This document shows positions 31,893 through 49,570 of a stretch of 64,000 nt of DNA, piece after piece. A model generated the notes under the pieces. The model was given only the letters and a program-made list of their open reading frames with translations. It ran no database searches and was not told the origin of the DNA. Positions within the stretch are counted from its first letter, which is position 1. Each line of letters opens with the position of its first letter. A program made the translations under genes and the position numbers. This stretch comes from Allocoleopsis franciscana PCC 7113 (lineage in GTDB: Bacteria > Cyanobacteriota > Cyanobacteriia > Cyanobacteriales > Coleofasciculaceae): the NCBI RefSeq assembly GCF_000317515.1, contig NC_019738.1, positions 2,001,623 to 2,065,622 of the forward strand, given 5' to 3'.

Positions 31893-34800
31893 TTAGCGAG
31901 TCGTTAGTCTTGATTTTTGAAATCTTTGCTTCAGGCGAGTTTTTCCCTGTTGTATTTTCTGCTCCAAGTTAGTATCTGGCTGTTGTAAAGAAGGAGCTTG
32001 GGAAAAAACTAAGTGCTTAGCTAAAGCACGAATGCTTGAGTAATTAAACAAGTCAATCAATGAGATATATTGTACCTCATCTGGCAATTCTTCTCGAATC
32101 TTGTTGTAAATTTTTATAATGAGTAGTGAATTTACACCCAAGTCAAAAAAGTTATCATTAACTCCTACTTTCTCTATCTGCATCACATATTGGACAACAG
32201 CAGCAATCGTTTTTTCGATTTCATTTTTTGGGGGTACATAAGAAACGTTTAATTCCTGAAGAAAAGCGTCTGGAGTAGGAAGCGCACGGCGGTCTACTTT
32301 ACCATTTGCTGACAGTGGAAAAGCCTCTAGAAAGACAAAGGCTGATGGCAGCATATACTCAGGCAGCTTCCCGCGCAGAAAACGACGCAATTCATCTGTG
32401 GGAATTTCCTGGTGGGGAACCACATAAGCGACCAGCCGCTTATGGCTGGGCTGTTCACCCGCTACAGTAACGACTGCTTTACCCACAGCAGGATGCTGCA
32501 CCAGCACCGCTTCAATTTCTCCTAACTCAATGCGGTATCCACCAATCTTGACTTGAAAATCTTCTCGACCCAGAAATTCAATCGTTCCATCGGGAAGAAA
32601 ACGACCCAAATCACCTGTCCGGTACAATCGCTCACCTGTACGAGGATGGGTAATAAAACTAGCCGCCGTTTTAGCTTCTTGCCGCCAGTAACCCAACGCC
32701 AGCCCCATGCCTCCGATGTAAAGCTGCCCTGGAACCCAAACAGGACAGGGTTCTAGCGCATGATTGAATACATAGAAACGCTGATTTGTCATCGGACGAC
32801 CATAGGGAATACTCTTCCAAGCTGGGTCAACCGATTGAATCGGATAGAGAATAGACCAGATAGACGCCTCAGTAGCACCCCCCAAACTAATCACTTGAAT
32901 ATCCGGGACAAGGGCTTTAATTTGAGTCGGTAAAGTTAGGGGGAGCCAATCTCCGCTCAACAAGACCAACCGCAGACTGGCTAAAGCTTCAGAGTTATTC
33001 TGGGCATAGTCCACCATCATCTGCATTAAAGCTGGCACCGAGTTCCAGATAGTGATGTTGTGCTGTACTATCAACTCTTCCCAGTGGCTCGGTTCCCGCT
33101 CAAAGGATGCTTTGGGGATGACAATCGTTCCCCCTGCTGCTAGCGTGCCGAAAATATCGTAAACCGACAGGTCAAAACTGAGGGAAGAGAGCGCCAACAC
33201 GCGGTCAGTTGGACTCACGCCAAAGCGCTGATTGATATCAATAATGGTGTTGACGGCACCCCGATGGTTAATCATCACCCCTTTGGGAACACCTGTAGAA
33301 CCGGAGGTGTAGATGAGGTAAGCTAAATCCTCTGGTGTCTGGACTGGCTCTAAAGGCTGGTTACTTTCTTCTGCTAAGTCTTCACTGTCTATACACAACC
33401 GATGAACTGACTGAGGCCAAGACAGTTTCTCATTGAGCCAAGATTGAGTGAGAACAATATTAACTTCACTGTTTCTTAGCAGGTACGAAAAACGTTCTTC
33501 AGGGAGTCCGGGATCGATGGGGACATAGGCAGCACCAGAGGCTAAAATGCCCATAATTGCAACAATTTGCTCGCATCCCTTTTCCATCACTACGGCTACC
33601 AGTTGGTTGGGAGTTGCCCCCAATTTCCGCAGTCGATGAGCAACTTGATTGGAGCGATCGCATAATTCCTGATAGGTTAGGCTACGCTCCGGCGAAATGA
33701 TAGCCAGCTCATTTCTTCGACGCTGTACTTGTTCGGTAAATAACTCATGCAGCAGCGTATCAGGAACGGGTGCGTCAGTAGCATTGATAGCATCCCGTTG
33801 CGCTAACTGTGCCGGAGGTATAAGATTTCGCCTTGTCTCAACCCAAACTGAATCGGAGGTAGCTAGCTGCTGGAGAAAGCGGCAATACGCCTCGAACATA
33901 TCCTGAATTAAATCTTCAGGGAAGAGTTCCTCGACTACATCCCAATTAAATGTCAGCGTTCCCTTTTCCTCCCATACTTGAACATCCATCCACGCCTGAG
34001 ATGCTTGGCTGATGCCATAGACTAACTCTCCAAAATGGCTGAAGGTTAAGGTTTCCTGTCCTAGCGAACTGAAGCCTAAAGTACTGGTGAAGATGACAGG
34101 TATGGTGCTGATAGCCGTCCCTTTCCTGCGAGCTAGTTCCCGCATCGCTTGCACACCATTAAAGTAGCGGTGTTCTAAATCCTGCCATAGTTGTTTCTGG
34201 AGGCGGATGGCGCGTTGGCTAAACGACTCAGAGGCTGAGTTGTCCACTGCCAGGAGGGTTGCAGAGGTAAAGCCTCCCAAGATTTCATTGACTTGGGGAT
34301 GCAGGGGCAACCGATTAAACAGGGCAAGATTGAGAGTAAATTGGGGACTCTTGCTCCAAACGGTGATGATTTCGGCAAAAGCGGCAAGTAAGACGCCAGA
34401 AGGTGTCAAACCAACTTGAGCAGCACGTTGCTTTAACTGCTGCCATTGAGTGCGATCTAAGCCACTCTCATAACGCTTGGAGCGATACTGTTTAAGTTGA
34501 TGGGGACTCTTAGCCAGGGGTAAGTCGGGTGCTGGGGGAAGAGTGTCTATACGGCTTAACCAATAATCGCGCGATCGCTGATACAGTTGGGTCTCTTGTA
34601 AACGTTGCTCTGCTAAAGCATAATCCCGGAATGAAAGTTCAAGCGGTGGCAGTGCAACTTCAGGATTTTGATACAGTTGAAACCACTGTTCAAATAGACG
34701 AAACAGACTCCAGGCATCAAAAATTAGCAAGTCGTAGCTGATGTGCAATCGAACGCGATCTGCCGTAGGCGGCAGCGCTTCGCTATCGCCCTTACGGGCG

Positions 34801-35411
34801 CGCCTTCGGCTATCGCCATCCAAACACGTTGCCCTAAACTCAAACAAAGGCCACTGATTGGCAGGCAACACCTGATGAGACATTCGTTCCCGAATAGCCT
34901 CTAACTGAGCCTTGACAACTGCCTCATCTTGTCCTATTAAATCTAAAACCTCGAACGGGTAAGGAGGCACCTGCTTGAGAATCTGCTGTTGACCATCCGG
35001 TAACACCACAGCCCTCAGCATGTCGTGACGCTCAATCAATCGTTGTAACGCCCAGTTCAAGCGTTCCAGATTTAAGTCCTTACCCTCAATTTCGTAGTAA
35101 CCATGATTGCTCACATTGCCTAACTCAAATACCCCACTGCGGCCTATCCAGAAGGCATGTTGCATATCCGTCAGAGGAAACGGTTCGTAGCGCAACTCTG
35201 GTGCTGGCACAATAGTTGGTAGAGCAGTAGAACTGACACTTATATTGCTTTGGTGCAGCAACTTAAGAATCTCTGCTTTATGCTCTGCTAAAGAGTTCCG
35301 CAGTTCTGGAGTGATTACCCCTTTGGGCGCATCAATTTCTAGTGAATTACCATTAGCAGAAAGTTTTACGCCTTTGTTGGAGAGGGTGGTTAAAAGTGAA
35401 TGTAAATCCAT
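31893..35411 (-). CDS. NRPS Cy-A(Cys-type)-PCP with a TubC-like N-terminal docking domain
   Basis: N-terminal about 55 aa [47 protein letters not shown]. Cy [14 protein letters not shown] and [44 protein letters not shown]. Confidence 0.9.
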   Translation of the reverse strand: [1172 protein letters not shown]

Positions 35412-35620: not shown

Positions 35621-37180
35621 TTACAGACTCAACTTCTCTCGTTCTTCTTCATGTGTTTTAGCAGCATCAATTGGCTCTGTTGCAATTAGATTGACCAGCA
35701 CTAATTGATTAAGCAATTGTTCTGATAGTTGAGCAATGGTGTTGTCTCCAAAGAAGCTCTCCATTGGCACTTGTACCTGGAGGTCGGTTTCAATTCGGCT
35801 CCTAAACATCAATGCCATCAAGGAGTCCAGTAATGAAGCAAAAGATTGCTGAGGCGTGAATTGATTTGGGGGAAGCTGTAAAGTAGTGGTGAGCCATCCT
35901 ATAAGGTAAGTTTCCAGCATCTGCCGTCTTTTCTCTGGTTCAGCAGCTAGAAGCTGTTCTCTTGAAAGAGTTTCCGTTTGGTGAATAGGAGGATTTTCTT
36001 GGGAACGAGAGTCTGCTCCTGCTAAACGAATCTTCTCTTGTTCCGGTGTAACACTAATGGGAGGAGCTGGAACCGCTCCTAGCGCTACATCACCCCAACG
36101 CATCACCATTGCGCCTGCTGTGGCACCTGCACCGTTTGTGTAAACGAGAACCAGGTCATTTTCACGCAGTTTGCCCGATCTCGTCGCGTGGTACAAGTTG
36201 GCGATGGGAAGAACTGGTCCGATATTGGCGTATCGGGGGTAAAGATTGATGGTACGTTCTGGATCGATGCCTAATGCCCGCGTACAGACGCTAGCATACC
36301 AGGCGGTCGGCGTATTGAAGGCAAAAAAGTCGATGCCCTCAAGGGACACTCCTGCTGCTGTTGCCGCTTCTTTGCAACAAGTGCGGACGAAATCAACGGC
36401 AGTTTCAGCAAGCATACTTGCGTTCTCACCCGTTCGAGTACGCATTCGAGGCACGCCTTGAGCATCCGTTACGAGTTCGTGGGAGTAAGCGCCGCAGGTG
36501 GCAGTGGTGCTGATGATTTTGGTGCCGAGGACTCCCTGATTGGGTTTGAGCGCACTCACGACAAAGGCTCCAGCGCCGTCACCCATCGACCAAGAAAGCG
36601 TGTCTTCATCGTCTACCGTGTTAGAACCAAATTGCGAAACCACCACCAGTACATTGCGGTACTCTCCCGTTTGCACCAAGGCACGGGCATTTTGCAGTGC
36701 CACCAAAGCACTCGAACAGGTTGATTCCAGATTCCAGGCAGGACAATGCAAGTTGAGTTGACGGACGAGGGAGGAGGTATTACTAAGTCCGATGGGTTCA
36801 CAGAAAAGTGAGGTGGCGATAGCGAAGCGCTGCTGCGAAGCGCAGATCGCCAATTCGACTTCTTCAGGATGAAGGTTTGCCGCCTCAAGTGCCTCTTTTG
36901 CCGCCCGATACTCCAGTGTCAGCGGCGACTCATCATGACTGAGTACTCGCCGTTCGACATTCCCTCGAAACGGGTCGTTTAAATACGGGGCTACCTCTTG
37001 CGACCAGATTTCAATTCCATCGTCGTTGGAGGTGGATTGAGAGGTTCTAGGCAACCGAACTCGTTTTGGTTGAGCTTGAACCGCTAACTCTGGAAACTTC
37101 TCGTACCAATAATCATTGGTACGAATCAGACTGGGAAAGCTTACGGCAAGCGAACGAATACCAATGGAGTGACTCGTCAC
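35621..37180 (-). CDS. Thiolase-fold KSIII-like enzyme fused to a C-terminal ACP domain
   Basis: Cys-containing condensing-enzyme motif NLESTCSSALVALQNA. Last about 100 aa form a carrier domain (FASLLDSLMALMF). Confidence 0.55.
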   Translation of the reverse strand: MTSHSIGIRSLAVSFPSLIRTNDYWYEKFPELAVQAQPKRVRLPRTSQSTSNDDGIEIWSQEVAPYLNDPFRGNVERRVLSHDESPLTLEYRAAKEALEAANLHPEEVELAICASQQRFAIATSLFCEPIGLSNTSSLVRQLNLHCPAWNLESTCSSALVALQNARALVQTGEYRNVLVVVSQFGSNTVDDEDTLSWSMGDGAGAFVVSALKPNQGVLGTKIISTTATCGAYSHELVTDAQGVPRMRTRTGENASMLAETAVDFVRTCCKEAATAAGVSLEGIDFFAFNTPTAWYASVCTRALGIDPERTINLYPRYANIGPVLPIANLYHATRSGKLRENDLVLVYTNGAGATAGAMVMRWGDVALGAVPAPPISVTPEQEKIRLAGADSRSQENPPIHQTETLSREQLLAAEPEKRRQMLETYLIGWLTTTLQLPPNQFTPQQSFASLLDSLMALMFRSRIETDLQVQVPMESFFGDNTIAQLSEQLLNQLVLVNLIATEPIDAAKTHEEEREKLSL

Positions 37181-38010
37181 AACACGACTCCTAAACTTCG
37201 GTAACTATCACCTGGAAAGGTGCATGACTCTGCACTCAGCACTGAACGTCGTCATAGCTGGCACTCAGGTGGTAATTCCATTGATTGATTTATGCCTGTA
37301 GGTCACTAATGAGAATTACTAGCGACTGACTGACTCATGTATCTTACTACTTGACAAGACATTGACAAGTCTTTCATTGAATATTTTTTCTTATTTGCAG
37401 AAAAAAATTGATAGTAATTTATTATTAATGAGTACGAAAGCGACCATTAAGGGCATCTAGTCGGTCATGGGAGGCGAAGGTTTCCATTCGGAGAAAAGCA
37501 AGTATGCTGATGCTATCAGCCTTGTTCGGAGGCGATTGCGCCCAAATCCGATGCACCTTCGATCAGGCTCGAATCGGTATCAAGCGGCGATCGCTAGCGC
37601 CTGCGATCGCAAGTGACCCTAAAAATTTTTAAAATTTTATTGCAAATAAATACCAGTTAGCTGTATTGTAATTCTGGATCAGTAAACGATAAAATCAACT
37701 TAGTTAATGAGAAAATTTATCGTGAGTTGTACCCACATCATGCATAGAGGGTTGGGCGCATCAAGTCTGCCATCAAAGGTGCAGGCTGGCTTCAAATAAC
37801 TAACCAGCTTACCCTCACAGGAATGCGTGAAGGCGTGACTTGGAACAAAACGGCACTAGTACCGCTACCCTTTATGTCAAAAGTCAAAAAGCTTTATTTC
37901 TAGACTTTTGAGCAAGTTTTCAGATGGTAGGCTCATTTGGGTCGTCATGTACTAGTCACATCTCAAAAGAAAGCCATCTGGGGCAATTAGATTTCCGAGG
38001 TGTTTTCTGC
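37181..38010. promoter_or_regulatory. Divergent promoter region between the two biosynthetic operons. AT-rich, with a tandem TTGACAAG repeat and a Fur-box-like AT tract.
   Basis: ttgacaagac/attgacaagtc at 37351-37369. tgatagtaatttattattaatga at 37408-37432. Both operons start here. Confidence 0.3.
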
Positions 38011-38274
38011 ATGGATACTTCAAAAGCGATGGATACTCTCAAAGCAATACTTGCTGACTTAGGTATTCCCCAAGAATCGCTGCACAATGACACACTACTG
38101 CACGAGGATTTACAACTTGATTCCACTGAAATAGTAGAAATTGCCCTAGGACTGAAACGCCAACTAGGGGTAAGCGTGAAGCTGGAAGGTCGGCAGGATA
38201 TGACACTGGCTCAAGTCTGCAACAAAGTCGAAGCGGCGCTGCTGGCCAACTCCAACTCTAACCATGTCTCTTGA
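38011..38274 (+). CDS. Free-standing aryl/acyl carrier protein
   Basis: MDTSKAMDTLKAILADLG... with LQLDSTEIVEIALGL (DS phosphopantetheine site). In frame inside track ORF 37924..38274. Stop overlaps the start of the following PPTase. Confidence 0.6.
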   Translation: MDTSKAMDTLKAILADLGIPQESLHNDTLLHEDLQLDSTEIVEIALGLKRQLGVSVKLEGRQDMTLAQVCNKVEAALLANSNSNHVS

Positions 38275-38683
38275 AGTTAAAGGACTCGGTATTGATATCG
38301 CGCCCATCCCCCGGATTGCTAGATTAATTGAGCGGTACGATCGCGAAACGTTAAATTTGTTGTTTACTCCGGGCGAACTCGACCGTTGCCAATCCTCCAG
38401 TCATCCCCACCGTTCTTTCGCCGTGTGCTTTGCCACCAAGGAAGCTGTGGGAAAAGCTTTAGGAACTGGATTAGCAGGCATTGGCTGGAATGAAATTGAA
38501 GCCAACCTTACCCAAGACAGGTTAACCGTTCACCAGCATGGGGACGCCAGCATTCAGGCGAAACGATGGGGTATCCACACATGGTTAGCGACATGGTGCC
38601 ATTGGGATGAACACGTACTAGTTCACGTTCTCGCCTTATCAAACATAAGCGTCAAAGAAAAATTTTATGAAAAGTGTTTCTGA
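38264..38683 (+). CDS. AcpS-type (holo-ACP synthase-like) 4'-phosphopantetheinyl transferase
   Basis: 139 aa. GLGIDIAPIPRI and FATKEAVGKALGTG match AcpS motifs. Coupled to the carrier protein upstream and the ligase downstream. Confidence 0.65.
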   Translation: MSLEVKGLGIDIAPIPRIARLIERYDRETLNLLFTPGELDRCQSSSHPHRSFAVCFATKEAVGKALGTGLAGIGWNEIEANLTQDRLTVHQHGDASIQAKRWGIHTWLATWCHWDEHVLVHVLALSNISVKEKFYEKCF

Positions 38684-40229
38684 ACAGTTGCCGAGTGCCT
38701 TCAATGTGGCAGCTTATTTCTTGAACAGCAATATAGAACGGGGAAATAGCCAAAAAGTCGCCTGTTTTTATCAGGACGATACCTATACTTACGATCAACT
38801 CAACCGCTTTGTCCAACGCACGGCGCGATCGCTCCTCACTCTCGATTTAGAGCGGGAAAATAGGATTGCCATTCTTTTGCCTGATACTCCCGAGTTAGTC
38901 TTTGCCTTTTGGGGAGCAATTTGGATGGGTGCCGTACCTGTTCCCATTAACACCGCCTGTAGCATTGATGAAATCCAGTATATTCTGCAAGACTCGCGAG
39001 CCAAAATCTTACTGACGACTCAGGAATGGCAAAAGAAACTCACTCCCATTCCGTCTCAGTTTTTGCAGCACATTCTACTCAAAGATGGAGACAACCCATT
39101 TTTATCCCGACTCACCCAACAGCCTGACGAACCCTTCCCCTGTGCCGAAACCTCTCGCGACGAACCCGCCTTCTGGCTTTACACCTCCGGCAGTACAGGC
39201 AAACCCAAAGGGGTGGTTCACTTGCATCAAAGCATGGTGGTTTGTGCTGAACGCTATGCTAAAGCCACACTTGGCTTGCAACCCGATGACATCACCTATT
39301 CGGTTGCCAAGGTGCCTTTCGCCTACGGTTTAGGAAATACGCTTTATATGCCAATGGCAGTCGGTGCAGCCACCGTATTGTCAGATGCCAGCAACGCATT
39401 TGATATTATCTCCGACATTCAGCGCTATCAACCGACCGTCTTTTTTGGCATCCCCAGTATTTATGCCAACCTTCTCGCCGTACAGGATATCGCACCTTTA
39501 GATGTCTCCTCCCTGCGCTTATGCATCTCTGCCGCCGAACAGCTTCCTGAGAGTATCTGGCAAAAGTGGCGAGAGACTTACAACCGGGAAATTTGTGAAG
39601 GAATTGGCACAACTGAGTTTTTGCACATTTTTCTTGCCAACCGCTTAGGTGAGTGCAAACCTGGCACCTCCGGTCGCCCCGTTCCGGGTTACGATGTCCG
39701 AGTCGTTGATGAAAATGGACTTCCCTGTCCTCCAGGCGAGATTGGCGACCTTTTGGTAAGTGGAGAAAGCCTGATGTTGGGGTACTGGAACCGACTCCGA
39801 GAAACGCGGCAAGCACTCTATGGCAACACCATGCGAACGGGGGATAAGTATCTGTGTGATGCTGACGGCTATTTTAAGTTTATGGGTCGTAAGGACGATT
39901 TGTTTAAAGTAAACGGTCAGTGGGTTTCTCCTTTGGAAATTGAGGATATCTTGCACCAGCATCCCCAAGTGCTAGAAGTGGCGGTGGTTCCTGAATCTAA
40001 TGAGGGCGAACAACTCACTCGAGTCGTTGCTTATGTCAGCCTCAAACCCGGACAAGAACCGTCCCCTGAATTGGAAACTAGTATTTGTAAATTTGCCAAA
40101 CAGCAACTTCCTCATTTTAAGGCTCCAAAAACCGTGCGCTTTGTGGAACAGTTACCGCGTACTGCGACGGGGAAAATTCACCGGAAATTGATAGGAAAAA
40201 ATCAAGTCCTAGCTGTAGGCACTCACTGA
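38667..40229 (+). CDS. Aryl-CoA ligase of the benzoate-CoA ligase family (candidate salicylate/aryl acid activating enzyme)
   Basis: NVAAYFLNSN, FWLYTSGSTGKPKGVVHLH, VPFAYGLGNTLYMP, MRTGDKY, RKDDLFKVNGQWVSP, LPRTATGKIHRKL. These are typical of the BadA/BclA-type family. Confidence 0.8.
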   Translation: MKSVSEQLPSAFNVAAYFLNSNIERGNSQKVACFYQDDTYTYDQLNRFVQRTARSLLTLDLERENRIAILLPDTPELVFAFWGAIWMGAVPVPINTACSIDEIQYILQDSRAKILLTTQEWQKKLTPIPSQFLQHILLKDGDNPFLSRLTQQPDEPFPCAETSRDEPAFWLYTSGSTGKPKGVVHLHQSMVVCAERYAKATLGLQPDDITYSVAKVPFAYGLGNTLYMPMAVGAATVLSDASNAFDIISDIQRYQPTVFFGIPSIYANLLAVQDIAPLDVSSLRLCISAAEQLPESIWQKWRETYNREICEGIGTTEFLHIFLANRLGECKPGTSGRPVPGYDVRVVDENGLPCPPGEIGDLLVSGESLMLGYWNRLRETRQALYGNTMRTGDKYLCDADGYFKFMGRKDDLFKVNGQWVSPLEIEDILHQHPQVLEVAVVPESNEGEQLTRVVAYVSLKPGQEPSPELETSICKFAKQQLPHFKAPKTVRFVEQLPRTATGKIHRKLIGKNQVLAVGTH

Positions 40230-40253
40230 AAAAGTATTGACAAGGAGATATTA

Positions 40254-41576
40254 ATGGTTACAGAATTAAAAACCGCTCTATCGTATCAAGAAACTTTTGT
40301 ATCGGGCAGAAGGAATGCAGTAGCGGTTTTACAGAATTTTTTGAAAGCGGGTATTTTTTCCAATTATGTGATGTATGAAAAAGACAACGAAGTTCGCATT
40401 GCGGGCAATGAGCTAGCCAAGGTGTCCGTCAGCAAAACTACAGTCTGTCTTGAGGGTATGGGGAAATCTTCCTCTCAACCTGTCAGCGATCCGTTTAAAC
40501 AAGTCGGTGATTTACTGAGGTCTTTATCTATTAAAAATTGGACCGCTTATGGTTATGTAGCCTTTGACATGGCTGGCTTCTATTCGTCCTACTCTAAAGC
40601 AATGGAGCAGCCACTTCTTTATTTATTAGTTCCTGAAACCGAACTGCGTTTTACGTCAGAAGGCGTTCATGTTAAAAGCACCAGTTCATTAGAGCAAATT
40701 CGAGAACTACTATCTATTGATAGCAAGCTCCCCGATTATGTACCCATCTCTCTCGCTGAAGATTTCGCGGACTGCGAAAATTACTCCCACCGTATTGAGA
40801 GGTTAATTGAGGCAATTCAAAATGATGAATTGCATAAAGCTATTATCTCTCGCTCCAAGAAACTTATCGGCAATTTGGATGTATTGGGAACTTATGCCGT
40901 TGGAGCCAAAGCGAATAATTCAGCGCGTTCCTATTGTCTAAATATAGGAGACGTGCGTGCGGTTGGCTTTAGTCCTGAAATTTTGATGCAAGTTAATAAA
41001 GACGGGTTTGTCGTGACGAATCCTTTAGCAGCAACTCGTCCTCGCGGTCAATCTAGTGAAGAGGATGCACGCTTCAATGATGAACTTTTCACCGATGCTA
41101 AGGAGGTGAAAGAACACGCACTTTCTATCTGGTTGGCACAAAGCGAACTGAGTTCATTTTGCTTTCCAGAAACGGTTCGGGTTTTTAATTTTATGGAGGT
41201 GAAAAAATATCGCTGTGTGCAGCACCTTTCTTCGAGAGCTGGCGGTCAGCTAAAAGATGGAAATACGTTGTGGGATGCGTTGAAGGTTTTGTTTCCAGGT
41301 ATTACTGTTTCTGGAATTGATAAACAAAAAGCTTTAGATTGGATCGATCGCTTGGAGGACGAACCGAGAGGAATTTATGCGGGTGGTATTGGTTGGGTTG
41401 ATAGTAATGGGGAATCGGATTTAGCGATCGCAATTCGTTCTGTCTACCAGTACGGCAATGAAATCTACCTCAATGCTGGAGCGGGTATTGTTGCTGAATC
41501 AGTGCCTCAAAATGAGTATATCGAGTCGGTTAACAAAATGAATACGATGCTGACGAATTTAGTTTTGCAATCTTGA
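40254..41576 (+). CDS. Chorismate-utilising enzyme (salicylate synthase / isochorismate synthase family)
   Basis: 440 aa. C-terminal chorismate-binding signature PRGIYAGGIGWVDSNGESDLAIAIRS. Size fits MbtI/Irp9-like salicylate synthases. Confidence 0.7.
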   Translation: MVTELKTALSYQETFVSGRRNAVAVLQNFLKAGIFSNYVMYEKDNEVRIAGNELAKVSVSKTTVCLEGMGKSSSQPVSDPFKQVGDLLRSLSIKNWTAYGYVAFDMAGFYSSYSKAMEQPLLYLLVPETELRFTSEGVHVKSTSSLEQIRELLSIDSKLPDYVPISLAEDFADCENYSHRIERLIEAIQNDELHKAIISRSKKLIGNLDVLGTYAVGAKANNSARSYCLNIGDVRAVGFSPEILMQVNKDGFVVTNPLAATRPRGQSSEEDARFNDELFTDAKEVKEHALSIWLAQSELSSFCFPETVRVFNFMEVKKYRCVQHLSSRAGGQLKDGNTLWDALKVLFPGITVSGIDKQKALDWIDRLEDEPRGIYAGGIGWVDSNGESDLAIAIRSVYQYGNEIYLNAGAGIVAESVPQNEYIESVNKMNTMLTNLVLQS

Positions 41577-41594
41577 TAACGACGAGATAGCTGC

Positions 41595-42026
41595 ATGAAT
41601 ATTATCGGTCATGGGATTGACATTGTGGACGTGAGATGCATCCAAGAACTTGTCGAACAAACGGGGGAGTGTTTTGAACGTCAATGCCTCACGGCTGCGG
41701 AACTCAATGCTTCGGGGTTCCGTACTCACCGCTTTGAGTATCTTGCTAGCCGTCTCGCTGCCAAAAAAGCGGTTCAAAAAGCGCTCGGTGGAGATTGCCA
41801 ACAGCCTATCTCGTGGCATGAGATTGAGATCCAAAAGCTACCGACGGGTGAACCGTTTGTCGTGCTGTATGCCACTACCCTTGAAATTGCCGCGAAACTT
41901 GGCATTACCAAGTGGCTGCTGAGTATCAGCCATACCCCATCTTATGCGACAGCCAGTGCGATCGCCCTTCAGGCGCTGGCAAAGCCAATTGCCCTTCTAT
42001 TCTCCAACAGTGGTGCACCTTACTAA
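41595..42026 (+). CDS. AcpS-type 4'-phosphopantetheinyl transferase (second copy)
   Basis: 143 aa. MNIIGHGIDIVDV, LASRLAAKKAVQKALGG and SISHTPSYATASAIA match AcpS motifs. Confidence 0.75.
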   Translation: MNIIGHGIDIVDVRCIQELVEQTGECFERQCLTAAELNASGFRTHRFEYLASRLAAKKAVQKALGGDCQQPISWHEIEIQKLPTGEPFVVLYATTLEIAAKLGITKWLLSISHTPSYATASAIALQALAKPIALLFSNSGAPY

Positions 42027-42168
42027 CTGTCAACTGTACAGTCATCTACCGAAATAAATAAAGTTGACATGGCAAACGAACTGTTTTATTGTTACTTGAG
42101 TTAATGATACTATTTCTCAATAATTTACTTGAGTTGCTGAGAGTAACTCAATTCCTGGGGGTGAGGAC
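42027..42168. promoter_or_regulatory. Promoter region of the TonB-dependent receptor gene with a Fur-box-like element and a direct repeat
   Basis: ttgaca at 42064-42069. tgatactatttctca at 42104-42118 matches the Fur 7-1-7 consensus TGATAATnATTATCA at 11 of 14 positions. ttacttgagtt is repeated at 42092-42102 and 42125-42135. Confidence 0.35.
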
Positions 42169-44757
42169 GTGGACACTCGATTGAAACTACAACAATTATT
42201 TCCTAGTTTTTTGTTCGCTAGCACGGTTTCTGTACTCGTTGCAGCTCCGGCTTTTGCTCAAGTTATACAAGTAACAGGCGTGCGTGTCTCTGCCACATCG
42301 AGCGGAGTTAATGTGATTTTAGAGACCAATTCAGACACTATTCCCCAAGTGTCTACGGCAAGCTTGGATAAGACGTTACTGACTGATATTTTCAATACTC
42401 AACTGCGTCTACCAGATGGTCAAGCGTTTCGTCAAGACAACCCGGTGGAAGGGATTTCGTCTGTCACGGTGACTCAGCAATCTCCAAACACCATTCGAGT
42501 TGCGGTAACGGGTACAACAGAGGTGCCGACGGTTCAACTTAGTCCCAGTCCATCAGGATTCGTCCTGAGCCTGAGTACTCCATCGGCTACGGCTCAAACT
42601 CCATCAACTGAAACTCCTACAGCACAAGAGCCTCAAACTCAGCCGCCTACCGCACCTGAAGTCACCACCCCTTCAGAGGATAAACCCGAAGCCCCGACGG
42701 CTGCACCCGAGCCAGAAGAGGAGATTGAAATCGTGGTGACGGGGGAACAAGATGAAGATAGATACTTTGCCCCCAATGCCAGCACCGCGACGCGCACCGA
42801 TACTCCACTGCGCGACATTCCTCAGTCAATTCAGGTGATTCCGCAAGAGGTAATTAAAGATCAACAGGCAACCGATTTAAGAGATGTCCTAAGTAACTTG
42901 AGTGGCGTAACACCCAGTGGCTCAGCCGGTAATGCGGTTACTAATTTTACGATTCGAGGATTTCAACAGGCACCCATCTTACGCGACGGCTTTAGACAAA
43001 ATCCTTTGAATCGGGGAGTACCACAACTTGCCGACCTCGAGCGGGTTGAAGTTCTCAGAGGCCCTGCATCAATTTTATACGGTGAGGTGCAGCCAGGAGG
43101 TGTGATTAACCTAGTGAGTAAACAGCCCCTCACTGAGCCATTTTATGAAGCGGAACTGCAAATTGGCAACCGCGAGCTGTTTCGACCCCGGATTGACATT
43201 TCAGGTCCATTGACAGCAAACCGCAGCTTGCTCTATCGCTTGAATTTGGCATACGAAAGCAGTGAACCGTTTCAAGACTTTGAGCAAGGATTTGAGCAAT
43301 TTCTGATTGCACCCGTAGTCACTTGGAAGCCGAGCGATCGCACAGATGTCACGTTTCGACTACAGTATTCTGATCGAGAAGCCCCCGCAGATAATGGTTT
43401 AGTTGCGTTTGGCAACCGAGTTGTTGATGTTCCTTTCGATACCATTACCACTTCTCCAAACGACCCTGGGATTCGGGAAAACAACTTCAGCATCGGGTAC
43501 GACTTAGAGCATCGCTTTAGCGACAACTGGCGACTTCGCAACGCCTTCCAGTTTTCGGATTTCTCAAGCGATATCGGTCTCAGGAATCCTTTCTTCATTA
43601 ATGAAACTACAGGAATTTTGGGTCGTGTTCCTGTTCGACAACAAACTGATACGCAAAATTATAATTTGCAAACCAATATTGTCGGGGAATTTGCCACAGG
43701 CTCGATCAAGCATACACTTTTGTTTGGAGTCGATCTTAATCGAATTGAAAATGCCCAACTCCTATGGGGAGGTTCCTTCGGCAATCCGTTGCCACTCAAT
43801 ATCTTCGCTCCTGATTATGGCGCAGATCCTAATATTGATTTTAAGACCTTACCCTTCTTATCTGGCTTTGGCCCTTCAAAAGTTCAAACCGATCGATTGG
43901 GAGTTTATATACAAGATCAAGTCAAGTTTCTAGACAACCTAATCCTAGTGGCAGGGCTTCGCTATGATACAGTAAACAGCACCAGCGCTCCTTTCCTTGA
44001 TGTAGACAATACTGGACCTGAAACGACTCAAAACGATGACGCACTAACCCCCCGAATTGGAATTGTCTATCAACCCATCCCAGCGATTTCGCTCTACGGC
44101 AGCTACTCCCGGTCATTTACACCCAGCAGCGAAACTACAGCCAACGGCGATCCGCTTGAACCAGAACGAGGTGAGGGATTTGAAGTTGGTGTCAAAGCCG
44201 AATTGCTCGAAGGTAGACTGTTGACCACCCTGGCATATTTTGACATCACCAAACAAAATGTTGCCACAGCCGATCCCAATAATTTGTTTGGGGTTGTGGC
44301 AGCGGGCGAACAGCGAAGTCGCGGGGTTGAGCTGGACGTGACTGGAGAAATCTTGCCGGGATGGAATATTATTGCCTCCTATGCCTACACCGATGCCGAA
44401 GTTACAGCAGACAACGAAATTCCTGTGGGCAATCGGTTGTTTAACGTCCCTGAACATAGTGCCAGTCTGTGGACGACCTATGAAATCCAACAGGGGAATT
44501 TGCAAGGCTTGGGTTTTGGTGTTGGATTTAACTTTGTTGGGGAACGTCAGGGCGATTTAGCCAATAGTTTTCAGGTAGACAGCTATTTTCTGACCAATGC
44601 GGCTATTTTTTATCGTCGCAACAACTGGCGAATTGGCCTCAACGTCAAGAACCTGTTCAATATCGACTACATTCAAGCGACTGATAATCTTAGGCGGGCT
44701 GGAATTGAACCAGGCGATCCGTTGACGATCATTGGCTCAGTTTCAGTGGAATTTTGA
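42169..44757 (+). CDS. TonB-dependent outer-membrane siderophore receptor
   Basis: Signal peptide. N-terminal extension, then Pro/Thr/Glu-rich linker. Plug domain (DTPLRDIPQSIQVIPQEV). Long beta-barrel ending in C-terminal aromatic SVSVEF. Confidence 0.85.
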   Translation: MDTRLKLQQLFPSFLFASTVSVLVAAPAFAQVIQVTGVRVSATSSGVNVILETNSDTIPQVSTASLDKTLLTDIFNTQLRLPDGQAFRQDNPVEGISSVTVTQQSPNTIRVAVTGTTEVPTVQLSPSPSGFVLSLSTPSATAQTPSTETPTAQEPQTQPPTAPEVTTPSEDKPEAPTAAPEPEEEIEIVVTGEQDEDRYFAPNASTATRTDTPLRDIPQSIQVIPQEVIKDQQATDLRDVLSNLSGVTPSGSAGNAVTNFTIRGFQQAPILRDGFRQNPLNRGVPQLADLERVEVLRGPASILYGEVQPGGVINLVSKQPLTEPFYEAELQIGNRELFRPRIDISGPLTANRSLLYRLNLAYESSEPFQDFEQGFEQFLIAPVVTWKPSDRTDVTFRLQYSDREAPADNGLVAFGNRVVDVPFDTITTSPNDPGIRENNFSIGYDLEHRFSDNWRLRNAFQFSDFSSDIGLRNPFFINETTGILGRVPVRQQTDTQNYNLQTNIVGEFATGSIKHTLLFGVDLNRIENAQLLWGGSFGNPLPLNIFAPDYGADPNIDFKTLPFLSGFGPSKVQTDRLGVYIQDQVKFLDNLILVAGLRYDTVNSTSAPFLDVDNTGPETTQNDDALTPRIGIVYQPIPAISLYGSYSRSFTPSSETTANGDPLEPERGEGFEVGVKAELLEGRLLTTLAYFDITKQNVATADPNNLFGVVAAGEQRSRGVELDVTGEILPGWNIIASYAYTDAEVTADNEIPVGNRLFNVPEHSASLWTTYEIQQGNLQGLGFGVGFNFVGERQGDLANSFQVDSYFLTNAAIFYRRNNWRIGLNVKNLFNIDYIQATDNLRRAGIEPGDPLTIIGSVSVEF

Positions 44758-44900: not shown

Positions 44901-46013
44901 TTGGCAAGGGGGGATTGGGAAAGCCGGATTTTCACTCATGAAGTAGAGATGAGAACAAAGAATCAATTTATTAAGCTTCTGGTATTAGCAGTACTCACAG
45001 CGTTTGTAGTGGCGGCTTGTAATGGAACAGCCAATAAGCTCACTGCTGATGACGACAATCCCCTGATTAGATCATCTGCAACGTCAGCAAACTGCCGCAC
45101 CATTGAGCATCAAATGGGAGAAACCGAAGTTTGTGGTCAGCCCCAGAGGATTGTGGTGCTTGGTCCTTCTGTCCTAGAATTGCTCCTAGCTCTAGACGTT
45201 CAACCGACTGGGTTCGCTGACCAGGTAACGTGGCATAGAGGAAATTACGATAACCCCGGTCAACAAATTCCTTATCTGGGAAGCCGAGTAACCAGTCAGT
45301 TGAAGAATGTAGGCTCGGTTTCTGAACCGTCTATCGAAGCCATTCTCAGTGTTCAGCCCGACTTGATTTTAGGCACTCAGTACAATGCCAATCAATATAA
45401 GGTATTTTCTAAGATTGCTCCAACCTTGCTGCTCAGTCGGAATGATAATGATATAGAAAAAAGTTTGCGGGCGATTGCCAAGGCTGTAGGAAAGTCTGAC
45501 CAAGCCGAACAATTGCTAACGAAAACACAACAGCAAATTGCTTCGGCTCGTGAAACCTTTGCACGCACTGTTGCTACTCACCGCAAAGTATTGCTGCTCA
45601 GTGCAGTCAAATGGGAGGAGCTTTATTTAGGTGACTCTAACTTTGGTCTTTGCAGTTCCTTGCTTGAAGCTTTGGGATTTCAACTAGTTACACCACCTGG
45701 TTTAAATTTGTCTAAACCAGATACTCCAGTTCCCATTTCTCTCGAAATTCTACCTCAACTGAATGCCGCAGATTCAGTGATTATGTTTGGAGGCAATTTC
45801 AGCGAACTTAATAACACGAATAATTTTGAAGCCCACCAACTGTCACATCTGAAGCAAGCGTGGGCAAACAATGCGATCGCCCAATCCCTCAATGCCAGCA
45901 AAACTGGACGAGTGTATTTCATTGCTGGTTATCTATGCCGAGGTTTTCCCGGTCCGATTGGTACTGAGCTTTATCTGGAAGAACTTGAAAAGCAATTGCT
46001 CTCGCCAAGTTGA
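44901..46013 (+). CDS. Periplasmic iron-siderophore ABC transporter substrate-binding lipoprotein (FecB/FhuD-like). Likely true start at 44949.
   Basis: MRTKNQFIKLLVLAVLTAFVVAAC lipobox. Class III SBP-like sequence follows. Adjacent to the TonB-dependent receptor. Confidence 0.7.
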   Translation: MARGDWESRIFTHEVEMRTKNQFIKLLVLAVLTAFVVAACNGTANKLTADDDNPLIRSSATSANCRTIEHQMGETEVCGQPQRIVVLGPSVLELLLALDVQPTGFADQVTWHRGNYDNPGQQIPYLGSRVTSQLKNVGSVSEPSIEAILSVQPDLILGTQYNANQYKVFSKIAPTLLLSRNDNDIEKSLRAIAKAVGKSDQAEQLLTKTQQQIASARETFARTVATHRKVLLLSAVKWEELYLGDSNFGLCSSLLEALGFQLVTPPGLNLSKPDTPVPISLEILPQLNAADSVIMFGGNFSELNNTNNFEAHQLSHLKQAWANNAIAQSLNASKTGRVYFIAGYLCRGFPGPIGTELYLEELEKQLLSPS

Positions 46014-46449: not shown

Positions 46450-47562
46450 CTAAGTTCGAGTTAGATAGCAGTGGCAATCAGGCTTTTCAATCAGCGTTTC
46501 AACCAAGGCATTTAGAGTCACTGCGGCTAAAAGACTACCACCAAGACTCCCTTGAATCGTAACGGACGGAATTGATGTTGCCATCAGTCGCCGCTTTGCT
46601 GCTGGGGCATGGCTAAAGCCAATCGGCATCCCAATCACAAGGGCTGGTTGAATTTGCTGTTGCTCAATCAGCTTACAGGCAGTAAGCAAGACGGAAGGGG
46701 CATATCCAATCACAAGTATGCATCCCTTTGGAATCTGTTGTAACCGTTGCTGCCATTGGTCATGATTCCAAAAGGCTTGCTCAGCTTCACTGACTCCAGT
46801 AATGTGAGGGTCATCAATCAGCGTTTCAAACGCGCATCCTAAATGGACTAACCGAGTTTGATCGAGGGCCGCCGCAACAACCGGAACATCGGTCAAGACT
46901 GGACACCCGACTTTCAGCGCATCCCGTGCAGCCGCGATCGCATTTTGGCTTAACTGAACCGAGTTCACCAAACTGACATCGCCACACGCCAGCACCAATT
47001 GATGCAGCAAATGGACGGTGATTTCAGAATAACCAGACAAATCAGGCAGCAGGTGTTGTAGGGATTCCTGAAATGCTTCTGGATGAGTATTTGTCTCTGC
47101 ATCCAGGTTAGTCCATAACTGATCGAGTTTTCCTAACCCCTCTTGGGCATCTACATCCAGTTGCTTCAGTTGTGCTAGGGCTTCAGCTTGAATGATTTGG
47201 CAGTTTTGATCACGTCCCAGCAATCCCTCCAAAGCAGATGCTGTTTGGCGGAGCCGGGTGATCTGCTGAATCACAGAGCGATATTGCTGCTGCAACTGAA
47301 TCATCAGGGTTGGATCGACGGTCTCTTCTGAATGGCTGTCTAGAAGTTGTCGAATGTGGGATAACTGAAAGCCTTGCTGTTTCAAAGCAATGACCCGCTG
47401 TAGCCGTTGCACATCCTGCTGAGTGTAGAGGCGGTAATTGCCTTCTGAGCGTTGTACTGGGGGAAGCAATTTGAGCGTGTGATAATGGCGTACCATGCGA
47501 GGGGTAACGCCACCGCCCACCGCATCCGTCAGTTCTTTAATCGTCAAGTGTTCGGTCTTCAT
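46450..47562 (-). CDS. coaR: CoaR-like cobalt-responsive regulator (MerR HTH fused to a precorrin isomerase CobH-like domain, C-terminal Cys-His-Cys)
   Basis: MerR HTH LTIKELTDAVGGGVTPRMVRHYHTLKLL. CobH-like segment GYAPSVLL ... VIGMPIGFSHAPAAKRRL ... GSLGGSLLAAVTLNAL. Terminal KPDCHCYL. Confidence 0.8.
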   Translation of the reverse strand: MKTEHLTIKELTDAVGGGVTPRMVRHYHTLKLLPPVQRSEGNYRLYTQQDVQRLQRVIALKQQGFQLSHIRQLLDSHSEETVDPTLMIQLQQQYRSVIQQITRLRQTASALEGLLGRDQNCQIIQAEALAQLKQLDVDAQEGLGKLDQLWTNLDAETNTHPEAFQESLQHLLPDLSGYSEITVHLLHQLVLACGDVSLVNSVQLSQNAIAAARDALKVGCPVLTDVPVVAAALDQTRLVHLGCAFETLIDDPHITGVSEAEQAFWNHDQWQQRLQQIPKGCILVIGYAPSVLLTACKLIEQQQIQPALVIGMPIGFSHAPAAKRRLMATSIPSVTIQGSLGGSLLAAVTLNALVETLIEKPDCHCYLTRT

Positions 47563-47644: not shown

Positions 47645-49570
47645 ATGGTTGCGGCTACCCGTTTTACTTCTCGATTTACCAACCTTTTCAAGGAACACCC
47701 CGATGCAGTCGCCGCGATCACCTGTGGAGTTCTGGTATTTTTAGGCTGGCAAATGCTCAACTTTGGTTGGCTGGGAGTTGCCCTTTTCATTCTGACGGCG
47801 GCTTATGTGATTGGTGGGTTTGAAAGTGCCCGCGAAGGGTTGACAACCTTATTTAAGGAAAAAGAATTCGATGTAGACCTGCTAATGATTGTGGCAGCGT
47901 TGGGAGCCGCAGGTTTGGGACTCTGGCGACAAGAATATTATCTGATTGTGGATGGGGCGGTTCTGATCCTGATTTTTGCCATCAGCGGGGCGTTAGAAGG
48001 GTATGCGATGCAACGGACGGAGCGTAGTATTCAGGGATTGATGAGCCTAACCGCTGATACGGCGCGAATGGTGCGGAATGGGCAGGAGAGAATTATCCCC
48101 GTTTCAGAACTCAAAATTGGGGATCAAGTTCTGATCAAACCAGGAGAATTAGTGCCAACAGATGGCTTAGTTATAGAAGGATTTAGCACTCTCAACCAAT
48201 CTTCCATTACAGGAGAATCGATTCCTGCCGAGAAAACGGTTGGGGATGAAGTCTTTGCAGGTACGATTAATGGTCATGGCGCACTGCGGCTCAAAATTCA
48301 TCAACCGCCCGAAAGTAGCTTAATTCAGCGAGTCATTCGTCTGGTTCAGCAAGCCCAAACGGAAGCACCGCCTTCTCAGCAGTTCATTGAACGATTTGAG
48401 CGCGGCTACGCCAAGTTGATTGTAATTGCCGGAATCTTGTTGGGTACATTACCGCCGTTTCTGTTGGGCTGGAACTGGGAAGAAACCATTTACCGGGCAT
48501 TGATTTTCCTGGTCGTTGCCTCACCCTGTGCGCTCATGGCTTCGATTATGCCGACGCTGCTCTCCGGTATTGCTAATGGAGCGCGTCACGGCATCCTGTT
48601 TAAGAACGGGGCACAGTTGGAGCGGATTGGACGAGTGCGGGCGATCGCCTTTGATAAAACTGGAACGCTGACCATAGGAAACCTTCAAGTCGTGAACGTT
48701 CTCTCAACTCAGCCATCCACCGACAAACTTCTGCAAGTAGCGGCGGCACTGGAAAGCTTGTCAGAGCATCCGATTGGAGAGGCGATCGCTCAGTTCGCCA
48801 GTCAGCAAAACCTGCACTGGACAACAGCCGTGAACGTTCAAGCCCAGGCAGGACAGGGAATCACTGGAGAAATCAACTCCAAGATGGCGATCGTTGGTAA
48901 AGCAGCGTTTGTCCAGGCGCAAATGAACGATGCTGCAAAAACCCTGATAGAGCAGAGCCAACAGTGGGAATTTGACGGCAAAACTGTGGTTTGGGTTGCC
49001 TATGCCAGAGAAATCTTAGGCATCATTGCCGTTGCGGATACGGTACGACCGGCAGCCGCAAAAGCGATCGCCCGATTAAAACGGTTAGGAATTGAGCAGA
49101 TTGTGATGCTAACTGGAGATAACTCGCGTACCGCCCACAGCATTGCTCAACAGGTTGGAGTCGATCAGGTTTATGCAGAGCTTTTGCCCGAAGAGAAAGT
49201 TGATATCATTCGCAAACTCCAGAAGCAGTATCAGGCAGTAGCAATGATTGGAGACGGCATCAATGATGCTCCTGCCCTGGCTCAAGCGGATGTGGGAATT
49301 GCGATGGGAGCCGCAGGTAGTGATGTGGCGTTGGAAACGGCAGATATTGTATTGATGGCGGATCGTCTGGAGCGACTAGAACATGCGATTCGTCTGGGTC
49401 GTCGCGCTCAAGGTGTGGTAAAACAAAACATTGTGTTTGCCTTGAGCTTCGTGGTAATTCTGTTGATTACAAACTTTACAGGTAATATCACCTTGCCGTT
49501 AGGAGTCTTGGGGCATGAAGGCTCAACGGTAATTGTGACATTAAGTGGATTGCGATTGCTGAGAGGTTAA
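47645..49570 (+). CDS. coaT: P1B-type heavy-metal ATPase, CoaT-like cobalt exporter (SPC motif, no N-terminal metal-binding domain)
   Basis: VVASPCALMAS (SPC motif), DKTGTLT, GDGINDAP, HEGSTVIV. 641 aa. Divergent from coaR. Confidence 0.85.
   Translation: MVAATRFTSRFTNLFKEHPDAVAAITCGVLVFLGWQMLNFGWLGVALFILTAAYVIGGFESAREGLTTLFKEKEFDVDLLMIVAALGAAGLGLWRQEYYLIVDGAVLILIFAISGALEGYAMQRTERSIQGLMSLTADTARMVRNGQERIIPVSELKIGDQVLIKPGELVPTDGLVIEGFSTLNQSSITGESIPAEKTVGDEVFAGTINGHGALRLKIHQPPESSLIQRVIRLVQQAQTEAPPSQQFIERFERGYAKLIVIAGILLGTLPPFLLGWNWEETIYRALIFLVVASPCALMASIMPTLLSGIANGARHGILFKNGAQLERIGRVRAIAFDKTGTLTIGNLQVVNVLSTQPSTDKLLQVAAALESLSEHPIGEAIAQFASQQNLHWTTAVNVQAQAGQGITGEINSKMAIVGKAAFVQAQMNDAAKTLIEQSQQWEFDGKTVVWVAYAREILGIIAVADTVRPAAAKAIARLKRLGIEQIVMLTGDNSRTAHSIAQQVGVDQVYAELLPEEKVDIIRKLQKQYQAVAMIGDGINDAPALAQADVGIAMGAAGSDVALETADIVLMADRLERLEHAIRLGRRAQGVVKQNIVFALSFVVILLITNFTGNITLPLGVLGHEGSTVIVTLSGLRLLRG

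Follow-up and report, generated by a model that had tools for sequence, protein, structure and literature searches.

Two AcpS-fold paralogues, one with a degenerate metal site, in the salicylate starter cassette of a cyanobacterial metallophore cluster

Carrier proteins of the gloACP/FatB class are primed neither by Sfp nor by Escherichia coli AcpS nor, so far, by the phosphopantetheinyl transferase (PPTase) encoded next to them, and this failure blocks the in vitro reconstitution of non-actinobacterial type II polyketide synthases (PKSs) and of cyanobacterial metallophore lines. How, then, are such carriers primed, and what does each protein do at a locus of Allocoleopsis franciscana PCC 7113, where a carrier of this class is encoded together with two small PPTase-like proteins, here called PPT1 and PPT2? 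The window analyzed is a stretch of 64,000 nucleotides (nt) of contig NC_019738.1 (assembly GCF_000317515.1, positions 2,001,623 to 2,065,622 of the forward strand), in which the two genes belong to a hybrid nonribosomal peptide synthetase (NRPS)/PKS cluster. We report that the carrier-adjacent PPTase is one conserved family across two very different cluster types, and that the NRPS/PKS type carries a second AcpS-fold protein, in which the metal ligands are selectively lost while the coenzyme A (CoA) half-site is kept.

A salicylate cassette with two AcpS-type proteins

The cassette consists of a tight run of five plus-strand genes (carrier, PPT1, ligase, salicylate synthase and PPT2) together with two genes on the minus strand, so that all seven genes of a fatuamide-type starter cassette are present:

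38011..38274, plus strand: free-standing carrier protein of 87 amino acids (aa), orthologue of gloACP/FatB (PF00550, 23.8 bits)
38264..38683, plus strand: PPT1, AcpS-fold phosphopantetheinyl transferase of 139 aa, orthologue of gloPPT/FatC
38667..40229, plus strand: salicylate ligase, an AMP ligase from the family of benzoate-CoA ligases (TIGR02262, 495.7 bits; cutoff 375)
40254..41576, plus strand: salicylate synthase (chorismate to salicylate), orthologue of FatE (TIGR03494, 327.8 bits, cutoff 325.15; PF00425)
41595..42026, plus strand: PPT2, AcpS-fold paralogue of 143 aa, orthologue of FatF (PF01648, TIGR00516)
35621..37180, minus strand: fusion of a ketosynthase III and an acyl carrier protein (KSIII::ACP), FatG-like, divergent from the run (PF08545, PF08541, PF00550)
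31893..35411, minus strand: first NRPS module, with a TubC-type N-terminal docking domain followed by heterocyclization (Cy), adenylation (A) and thiolation (T) domains (PF18563 TubC_N, 67.5 bits; Condensation, AMP-binding, PP-binding)

The carrier stop and the PPT1 ATG overlap by 11 nt, the PPT1 stop and the ligase ATG overlap by 17 nt, and PPT2 starts 18 nt past the salicylate synthase stop. The original prediction, made from the sequence alone, had placed two AcpS-type reading frames of about 140 aa in a cyanobacterial NRPS/PKS cluster, one coupled to the carrier and the ligase and the other following a chorismate-utilizing gene, and this is the layout found at 38264–38683 and 41595–42026. 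The carrier, which it had given as 88 aa, is 87 aa long from the ATG at 38011. It had also read the AcpS hallmarks into both proteins; the first of these is indeed shared (GLGIDI in PPT1, GHGIDI in PPT2), whereas the KEA motif occurs in PPT1 only (FATKEAVGKALGTG), PPT2 having KKA instead (LAAKKAVQKALGGD).

By size, profile and fold, PPT1 and PPT2 are AcpS-type proteins. Both exceed the cutoff of PF01648 (56.8 and 42.3 bits, respectively; cutoff 25), the profile against which the original prediction had proposed to check them, as well as that of TIGR00556 (59.3 and 69.0; cutoff 45.35). With the acpS profile TIGR00516 (cutoff 59.8), PPT1 falls below the cutoff at 50.4 and PPT2 lies above it at 70.6, and the full-length PRK equivalog cutoffs are reached by neither. 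The AlphaFold models (predicted local distance difference test scores of 92.2 for PPT1 and 87.5 for PPT2) have Vibrio cholerae AcpS (3qmn) as their best Foldseek match in the PDB, with TM-scores (TMt) of 0.89 and 0.93, respectively, and a root-mean-square deviation of 1.8 Å; the top matches of both models are AcpS structures throughout, which speaks against the non-PPTase fold that would have undone the prediction. At the sequence level, the PDB matches comprise only AcpS chains and the PPT domains of fungal fatty acid synthases. Sfp-type enzymes, by comparison, have about 230 aa and two AcpS-like halves per chain, whereas PPT1 and PPT2, which are 30% identical to each other, have about 140 aa and one domain each. 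Neither a Pfam search of the 22 reading frames with 150 aa or more nor a tblastn search with Sfp found an Sfp/HetI-type PPTase in the window.

Copp and Neilan 2006 are the origin of the statement that cyanobacteria possess Sfp-type enzymes only, which was repeated as late as 2021 (PMC8600333). However, Yang et al. 2017 placed eight cyanobacterial sequences in the AcpS clade (PMC5605751), and our database searches yielded 238 homologues for PPT1 and 118 for PPT2, among which the matches named by organism, a minority, are all cyanobacterial and include Moorena, Symploca, Nostoc, Fischerella, Microcoleus, Phormidium and Leptolyngbya. The view that cyanobacteria lack AcpS-type enzymes, on which the original prediction also relied, is thus outdated, and this blanket claim is corrected even if PPT2 is not an auxiliary subunit. 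The existence of the two genes is not new, because the cassette genes occur in published clusters, and the surprise attached to them by the prediction is accordingly weak: they are already annotated as FatC and FatF in the fatuamide cluster, as "PP" for lusichelin and as gloPPT, and the source databases label genes of both types "holo-ACP synthase". In a limited literature search, no description was found of the repeated, selective loss of metal ligands in the second paralogue, combined with retention of the CoA half-site and a link to KSIII::ACP.

Metal ligands, selection and genomic company of PPT2

In the V. cholerae AcpS–CoA complex, Asp8, Glu57 (via the metal) and Lys61 are provided by one subunit, and the contacts to the adenine, the 3′-phosphate and part of the pyrophosphate by the neighboring subunit (PMC3447402). 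PPT1 has the complete catalytic set of Mg ligands and general-acid Lys (D11, E60, K64). PPT2 retains D9 and K62, but the Glu corresponding to E58 of Bacillus subtilis AcpS and E57 of the V. cholerae enzyme is replaced by Lys58. As for the CoA nucleotide contacts, PPT2 keeps R53, G85-x-P87, S112 and H113, whereas PPT1 has Cys55 at the position of the 3′-phosphate-binding Arg and lacks the GKP loop, although its D115 aligns with V. cholerae D112.

The loss at the metal site is not confined to the window. Among 15 cassette copies of PPT2 (14 species and the window), only 2 have Glu at the Glu site, against 11 with Lys and 2 with Gln; at the Asp site, Asp and Glu are found in 6 copies each and Asn or Thr in the other 3. 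A neighbor-joining tree with the 118 database relatives separates a basal clade outside the clusters (n = 30 in the site table) from a cassette clade (n = 89), which contains every cassette copy of PPT2 looked up. The basal clade has Asp and Glu throughout and is invariant at the tabulated sites, except for the middle residue of G-x-P and one Arg53-to-His change. In the cassette clade, by contrast, the ligand Asp is retained in 40/89 and the ligand Glu in 23/89, with Lys at the Glu site in 44/89, and the tree shows at least 7 independent changes of the Glu, whereas the Asp site has lost its acidic residue at least 10 times. The CoA half-site has not followed: R53 is present in 88/89, G85, P87 and H113 in 89/89, and S112 in 88/89. 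E78 (89/89) and W107 (88/89) are conserved as well. By comparison, 119 of 120 PPT1 homologues have KEA or KES. Two members of the basal clade, the Asp/Glu-intact sister group of PPT2, were looked up in their genomic context, one in Oscillatoria acuminata (L085, 7431–8405) and one in Microcoleus anatoxicus (L086, 7414–8381). Each adjoins a gene for a DUF1643 protein and a conserved set of genes for MazG_C, HMUDK_hel, M78 peptidase and helix–turn–helix proteins, with no carrier nearby and no biosynthetic cluster, a puzzling setting for an AcpS.

Despite this loss, PPT2 is maintained. Its reading frame is intact at every locus, about 20 positions are invariant or nearly so, and the ratio of nonsynonymous to synonymous substitution rates (dN/dS) is 0.11–0.41 in 10 of 11 pairs, the remaining, near-identical pair L010/L011 (2.27) being uninformative; the range for PPT1 is similar (0.12–0.55). 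No PPTase tested can dispense with either metal ligand, and group II enzymes have both in 556/556 cases; in SchPPT and Hppt the corresponding mutations leave no activity, and in Sfp, Lys5 and AASDHPPT they either do the same or reduce activity more than 20-fold (PMC4103896). A protein that is maintained and yet has lost these ligands must have a conserved function other than conventional Mg-dependent transfer at its own catalytic half-site. Judged from these sequence patterns, PPT2 is probably a non-autonomous auxiliary subunit rather than a second independent enzyme. Pseudo-enzyme PPTases were not found described in our limited literature search, which is a weak negative.

PPT2 occurs together with KSIII::ACP in 21 of 22 informative loci, which are not phylogenetically independent of one another, and usually lies directly before it, whereas in 8 type II PKS loci that have PPT1 and no KSIII::ACP, PPT2 is absent within 10 kb and a single AcpS-like gene is present. 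Alignment to FabH structures shows that the KSIII domain keeps the Cys and Asn of the FabH triad, while His244 is replaced by Asn (Asn in 17 and Ser in 1 of 18 loci), which argues for acyl transfer and not decarboxylative condensation. The fused ACP has an LLDSL site and a non-acidic helix II, and ends in a tail, EEREKLSL in the window and EEREKLS[L/F/I] across loci, that looks suited to binding the next NRPS at its TubC-type docking domain. The first NRPS module, which contains the heterocyclization-type DxxxxDxxS motif (DLLIFDAWS), is the likely acceptor of salicyl from KSIII::ACP. The Cy-A-T NRPS next to KSIII::ACP is 65–73% identical in the loci that extend that far; KSIII::ACP and this NRPS are divergent in the window, L001, L091 and L092, and co-linear in most other loci.

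PPT1, its carrier and a possible division of labor

The free carrier has its attachment site at Ser38 in a Q-L-D-S-T motif and is 60% identical to gloACP, including this motif (Q31-L-D-S34-T35 in gloACP), and PPT1 is 58% identical over 120 aa to gloPPT, to which PPT2 is only 31% identical. When one genome per species was scanned with a PPT1 alignment, PPT1 was found in 24 cyanobacterial species at 51–71% identity, after which identity falls sharply to about 40% (AcpS of Chloroflexota and Thermoleophilia). A small carrier with the signature DLQLDSTE...KLExRQDMTL lies immediately 5′ of PPT1 in all 24 loci. The ligase follows in 23 of the 24 (64–93% identical), L028 having only a 28% AMP-ligase match, and the salicylate synthase is present in 22, being absent from the truncated L027 and from L028. 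The nearest locus, in the metagenome-assembled genome Acaryochloris sp. IP29b_bin.176, has a ligase of 93% and a salicylate synthase of 90% identity. In eight loci from Phormidesmis, Stenomitos, Pleurocapsa and Waterburya (L020–L027), the triad of carrier, PPTase and ligase stands after KS-alpha/KS-beta and before cupin and cyclase genes, which identifies them as type II PKS clusters and not NRPS/PKS clusters. In one of them (L023, 7075–16546), the triad and salicylate synthase accompany KS-alpha, KS-beta, a cupin, two cyclases and an alpha/beta hydrolase. Since the triad and the salicylate synthase are found in both cluster types, one starter cassette is common to type II PKS and NRPS/PKS metallophore lines. 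PPT1 has Cys55 and lacks the GKP loop at all loci of both types.

Experiments on the orthologous system of Gloeocapsa sp. PCC 7428, a type II PKS for which gloPPT is the "putatively cognate" PPTase, bear directly on this pair (PMC11744666). There, gloACP is primed neither in E. coli BAP1 nor by Sfp, for which Q31 and T35 are responsible, and gloSCL loads salicylate on holo-gloACP(Q31G/T35L) with ATP alone being sufficient (PMC11744666). The resistance of gloACP to Sfp is an experimental reason for a dedicated PPTase, and from its sequence and position PPT1 is plausible as the dedicated holo-synthase of the carrier, which it most likely converts to the holo form. By analogy with the orthologues, the ligase in the window would load salicylate on the holo-carrier, and the carrier would be incompatible with Sfp. 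The docking surfaces were compared by charge: helix alpha1 is basic in housekeeping AcpS (+2 to +4) and averages +0.4 in PPT1 and −1.5 in PPT2, while helix II of E. coli AcpP carries −6 and that of both cluster carriers about 0. A non-basic alpha1 and a non-acidic helix II are in keeping with the failure of E. coli AcpS on carriers of the gloACP class. With all four partners non-canonical, the charge comparison did not assign either PPT to a carrier.

From fold, motifs, synteny, co-occurrence and selection, we infer the following scheme, to which, taken as a whole, we give about an even chance of being correct. The salicylate synthase would make salicylate, and the benzoate-CoA-ligase-type enzyme would adenylate it and load it on the free 87-aa carrier. 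The KSIII-like protein, an acyltransferase with its Cys kept and its His lost, would then pass salicyl via this Cys to its own fused ACP, which would dock by its C-terminal tail on the TubC-type domain of the first Cy-A-T module and hand salicyl to Cy. Such a two-carrier relay means that loci with PPT2 have two carriers to be primed and loci without it have one. PPT1 would be the catalytic partner, priming the free carrier with its Q-x-D-S-T site refractory to Sfp-type enzymes. PPT2 would derive from an active AcpS that arrived with the KSIII::ACP module and later lost one or both Mg ligands in most lineages. An AcpS site joins a catalytic half with the nucleotide half of a neighbor, which makes an auxiliary subunit the preferred role of PPT2, and a catalyst PPT1 with an auxiliary PPT2 is favored because PPT2 has kept the neighbor half and lost the catalytic half, whereas PPT1 has kept the catalytic half and deviates in the neighbor half. 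PPT2 would thus lend its nucleotide half-site to a subunit that does the catalysis. The simplest such arrangement would be a mixed trimer with PPT1, and its task would be to prime the second carrier, the KSIII-fused ACP.

In its most specific form, this scheme becomes a heteromeric AcpS, a "split Sfp", in which Asp/Glu/Lys of PPT1 and the 3′-phosphate/adenine half-site of PPT2 would give one full active site per mixed trimer. We regard this form as tentative and rather unlikely. If true, it would be the first PPTase in nature to be encoded by two genes, one of them for an obligate pseudo-enzyme subunit, and it might explain why lone gloPPT was inactive in vitro on a carrier class that resists every PPTase tried. 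We considered whether the complementarity is limited to the loci that bear PPT2, but PPT1 also has Cys55 and no GKP loop in the type II PKS loci, where PPT2 is absent.

Several observations weigh against the auxiliary role of PPT2 and the scheme built on it. The same deviations of PPT1 where PPT2 is lacking mean that the reciprocal half-site pattern is not specific to PPT2, which keeps the heteromer hypothetical, and at the type II PKS loci, which have PPT1 and no PPT2 within 10 kb, PPT1 either works alone or has a partner encoded elsewhere. PPT1 and PPT2 share no more than 30% identity. About one-fifth of the cassette PPT2 proteins keep both acidic ligands (e.g., L007, L015 and P0160), and these forms could be ordinary active enzymes; likewise, the retention of Asp9 and Lys62 may allow residual or metal-independent activity. 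The shared ancestry behind the co-occurrence counts reduces their force, and L089 has PPT2 without KSIII::ACP within 7 kb. Lastly, in the only biochemical test of a PPT1 orthologue, no holo-carrier was obtained from gloPPT, whether or not gloSCL was added and whether in vivo or in vitro; misfolding is a possible cause (PMC11744666). The L089 locus (3132–7642) encodes PPT2 in its most degenerate form, with Ser and Arg at the ligand positions; MbtH comes after it, and genes for an aminotransferase and an SfmD-like peroxidase lie upstream.

The leading rival explanation is that both proteins are independent, active AcpS-type PPTases, PPT1 for the free carrier and PPT2 for the KSIII-fused ACP, as in the carrier-specific priming suggested by the original prediction. 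The invariant pairing of carrier and PPT1 (24/24) and the tracking of KSIII::ACP by PPT2 (21/22) would indeed give one PPTase per carrier, and PPT2, with a full AcpS fold and a TIGR00516 score above the cutoff (70.6 vs. 59.8), retains Asp9, Lys62 and all CoA-nucleotide contacts, as well as both ligands in some cassette orthologues. However, with its Mg-binding Glu replaced by Lys in the window and in 44/89 relatives, with Glu and Asp surviving in only 23/89 and 40/89, and with pairs that include a non-acidic residue, e.g., (S,K), (V,Q), (V,I) and (S,R), being numerous, PPT2 carries changes whose equivalents abolish or strongly lower activity in the PPTases tested (PMC4103896). The pairing anticipated by the prediction is supported by the comparison of genomes, but two carrier-specific active PPTases are unlikely, because of Lys58, the ligand loss in relatives and the essential nature of these ligands. 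Next in rank, and also unlikely, is a role of PPT2 as an adaptor in the KSIII::ACP relay that binds a carrier or CoA without catalysis, e.g., to hold or present a carrier, and does not interact with PPT1, with priming left to PPT1 and/or a genomic Sfp/HetI-type PPTase. The adjacency of PPT2 and KSIII::ACP in most loci, the non-basic alpha1 of PPT2 (−1.5 vs. +2 to +4) opposite a fused-ACP helix II of about 0 (vs. −6), and the loss of metal ligands under purifying selection all speak for an adaptor, but the invariant R53, G-x-P and H113 are hard to explain unless CoA or 3′,5′-ADP is still bound, and the nucleotide half-site of AcpS is productive only beside a catalytic half-site.

A third proposal, which we consider improbable, makes PPT2 a metal-independent PPTase in which Lys58 replaces Mg2+ in neutralizing charge at the CoA pyrophosphate. 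Among the 66 non-Glu states, Lys (44) far outnumbers any other replacement, the commonest pairs combine one acid with one Lys, i.e., (D,K) in 17, (E,K) in 5 and the swapped (K,E) in 4, and the CoA-binding residues are invariant. Much of this prevalence, however, is inherited within subclades and not independent, and many relatives have neither Lys nor acid at either site, e.g., (V,Q), (V,I), (V,T) and (S,N); that such proteins are conserved elsewhere argues that catalysis at this site is not under selection. No precedent for a metal-free PPTase was found, Asp and Glu being present in 556/556 group II enzymes (PMC4103896). The most ordinary explanation, that the genes are housekeeping fatty-acid AcpS copies or that PPT2 is a functionless, decaying duplicate, agrees with the database name "holo-ACP synthase" and with the degenerate active-site residues of PPT2, and is nevertheless very improbable: neither protein reaches the full-length AcpS equivalog cutoffs, the scan of species representatives found the PPT1 type in no more than 24 cyanobacterial species, in each case next to a QLDST carrier within a biosynthetic cluster, and the intact PPT2 reading frames, dN/dS of 0.11–0.41 in 10 of 11 pairs and invariant positions exclude a decaying pseudogene.

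Should PPT2 prove to be an auxiliary or pseudo-enzyme subunit, it would represent a new PPTase construction, a natural intermediate between the trimeric AcpS and the fused, two-half Sfp. The locus offers a direct experimental handle on the priming of gloACP-class carriers. In addition, the FatC-, FatF- and FatG-type genes are hereby flagged as parts of several published clusters in which they have no assigned function.

Surroundings of the cassette and known systems

Beyond the cassette, profile searches identify uptake genes downstream of PPT2 and an orange carotenoid protein gene:

42169–44757, plus strand: TonB-dependent receptor (PF00593, PF07715, PF11741)
44901–46013, plus strand: periplasmic binding protein (PF01497)
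49953–50915: orange carotenoid protein

The carotenoid protein gene shows that the DNA of the window is of cyanobacterial origin. The receptor and the binding protein beside the cassette mark the locus as a metallophore cluster, and such genes also flank the cassette in L001, L088, L091 and L092; the cluster in the window is a salicylate-capped metallophore cluster. The remainder of the minus strand, down to 1208, encodes the hybrid NRPS/PKS line and an FkbH-type extender-unit set. This set (23438–26917, minus strand) comprises an FkbH-like haloacid dehalogenase-type protein, an acyl-CoA dehydrogenase, an 84-aa ACP (25768–26022) and a 3-hydroxyacyl-CoA dehydrogenase; no O-methyltransferase was seen in it, and it resembles a hydroxymalonyl-ACP-type set. 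Its ACP is a third free-standing carrier in need of priming. A scan with the 19-bp Fur-box consensus gave three best matches of 14/19 in the window against 1.25 expected, which is not significant; two of the three (37703–37721 and 42100–42118) lie in the promoters of the carrier operon and of the TonB receptor, a placement that is suggestive of iron control without being significant. Scans for operon promoters and terminators were uninformative (13 vs. 7.2 and 6 vs. 5.4 expected, respectively). Beside the uptake genes, a 370-aa fusion of a MerR-type helix–turn–helix and a CbiC (precorrin-8X methylmutase) domain (46450–47562, minus strand), an unusual regulator architecture, adjoins a P-type ATPase (47645–49570). 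Farther downstream, a low-GC island (51700–57300; about 30–32% vs. about 45%) with a 921-aa reading frame without Pfam match (51773–54538, minus strand) and a tyrosine integrase (56111–57286, minus strand) is probably an integrated mobile element at the border of the cluster region.

A close known relative of the cassette is the fatuamide A cluster of Leptolyngbya sp., whose gene table lists FatB (ACP), FatC (PPTase superfamily), FatD (benzoate-CoA ligase), FatE (salicylate synthase), FatF (holo-ACP synthase), FatG (KASIII) and FatH (Cy-A-T) (PMC11877528). The gene order is identical to that in the window, the sizes are near-identical, and a TonB receptor and transport genes lie alongside, whereas the downstream assembly line and the product differ. 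Roles are given in that account to FatB, FatD and FatE only; FatC, FatF and FatG are listed without discussion, and nothing is said about the FatF type's degenerate active site (PMC11877528). When the gene context was looked up in Phormidium LEGE 05292 and Nostoc, the set of carrier, PPT1, ligase, salicylate synthase, PPT2, KSIII::ACP and docking NRPS was present there too. The model for anachelin lists KSIII-ACP, salicylate synthase and ligase, and a figure legend for lusichelin lists a "PP" gene.

In the type II PKS of Gloeocapsa, gloACP, gloPPT and gloSCL form a triad in the same order as in the window (PMC11744666), a triad found in 23 of our 24 loci, and the salicylate synthase is likewise present in this cluster type. 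In contrast to the gloPKS type, the triad in the window feeds an NRPS/PKS metallophore line rather than a ketosynthase–chain length factor pair (KS-CLF), and the window adds PPT2 and KSIII::ACP, both of which are lacking in the type II PKS loci. A similar dependence on an in-cluster PPTase is known from the anthraquinone synthase of Photorhabdus luminescens, where the ACP AntF is not primed by host PPTases and requires the PPTase AntB, aided by the neighboring CoA-ligase-like AntG (PMC6638757). AntF shares the D-S-T site with the window carrier (alignment in the supplement of PMC11744666). However, the Ant system lacks both a second PPT-like gene and a KSIII::ACP, gloPPT was not rescued by addition of the ligase, and AntB is compared here by role. 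Cluster-encoded PPTases selective for their cognate carrier are also described for the actinomycete type II PKSs, namely JadM, SxrX and FdmW (PMC9769936); in that account, SxrX is Sfp-type and about twice the size of PPT1 and PPT2, FdmW is ACPS-type by motif, and none of the three is paired with a degenerate paralogue as PPT1 is.

With respect to the two canonical PPTase types, PPT1 and PPT2 share fold and size with the housekeeping AcpS of E. coli, B. subtilis and V. cholerae (PDB 5vbx, 1f7l and 3qmn), whose active sites lie at subunit interfaces, and each retains part of such a site, PPT1 the Asp, Glu and Lys and PPT2 the nucleotide-binding residues. They are nevertheless only 25–33% identical to these enzymes, PPT1 without the 3′-phosphate Arg and the GKP loop and PPT2 without the Glu; the basic docking helix is missing from both, as is the acidic helix II from their carriers, and their genes are cluster-borne and stand outside fatty-acid synthesis. 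Sfp, a pseudo-dimer with one active site, has one AcpS-like half with the catalytic Asp/Glu/Lys and a second, non-catalytic half, a pattern similar to that of PPT1 and PPT2 by way of analogy only. Unlike the halves of Sfp, PPT1 and PPT2 are separate polypeptides of about 140 aa, 30% identical and neither of them Sfp-like in sequence, whose association is hypothetical.

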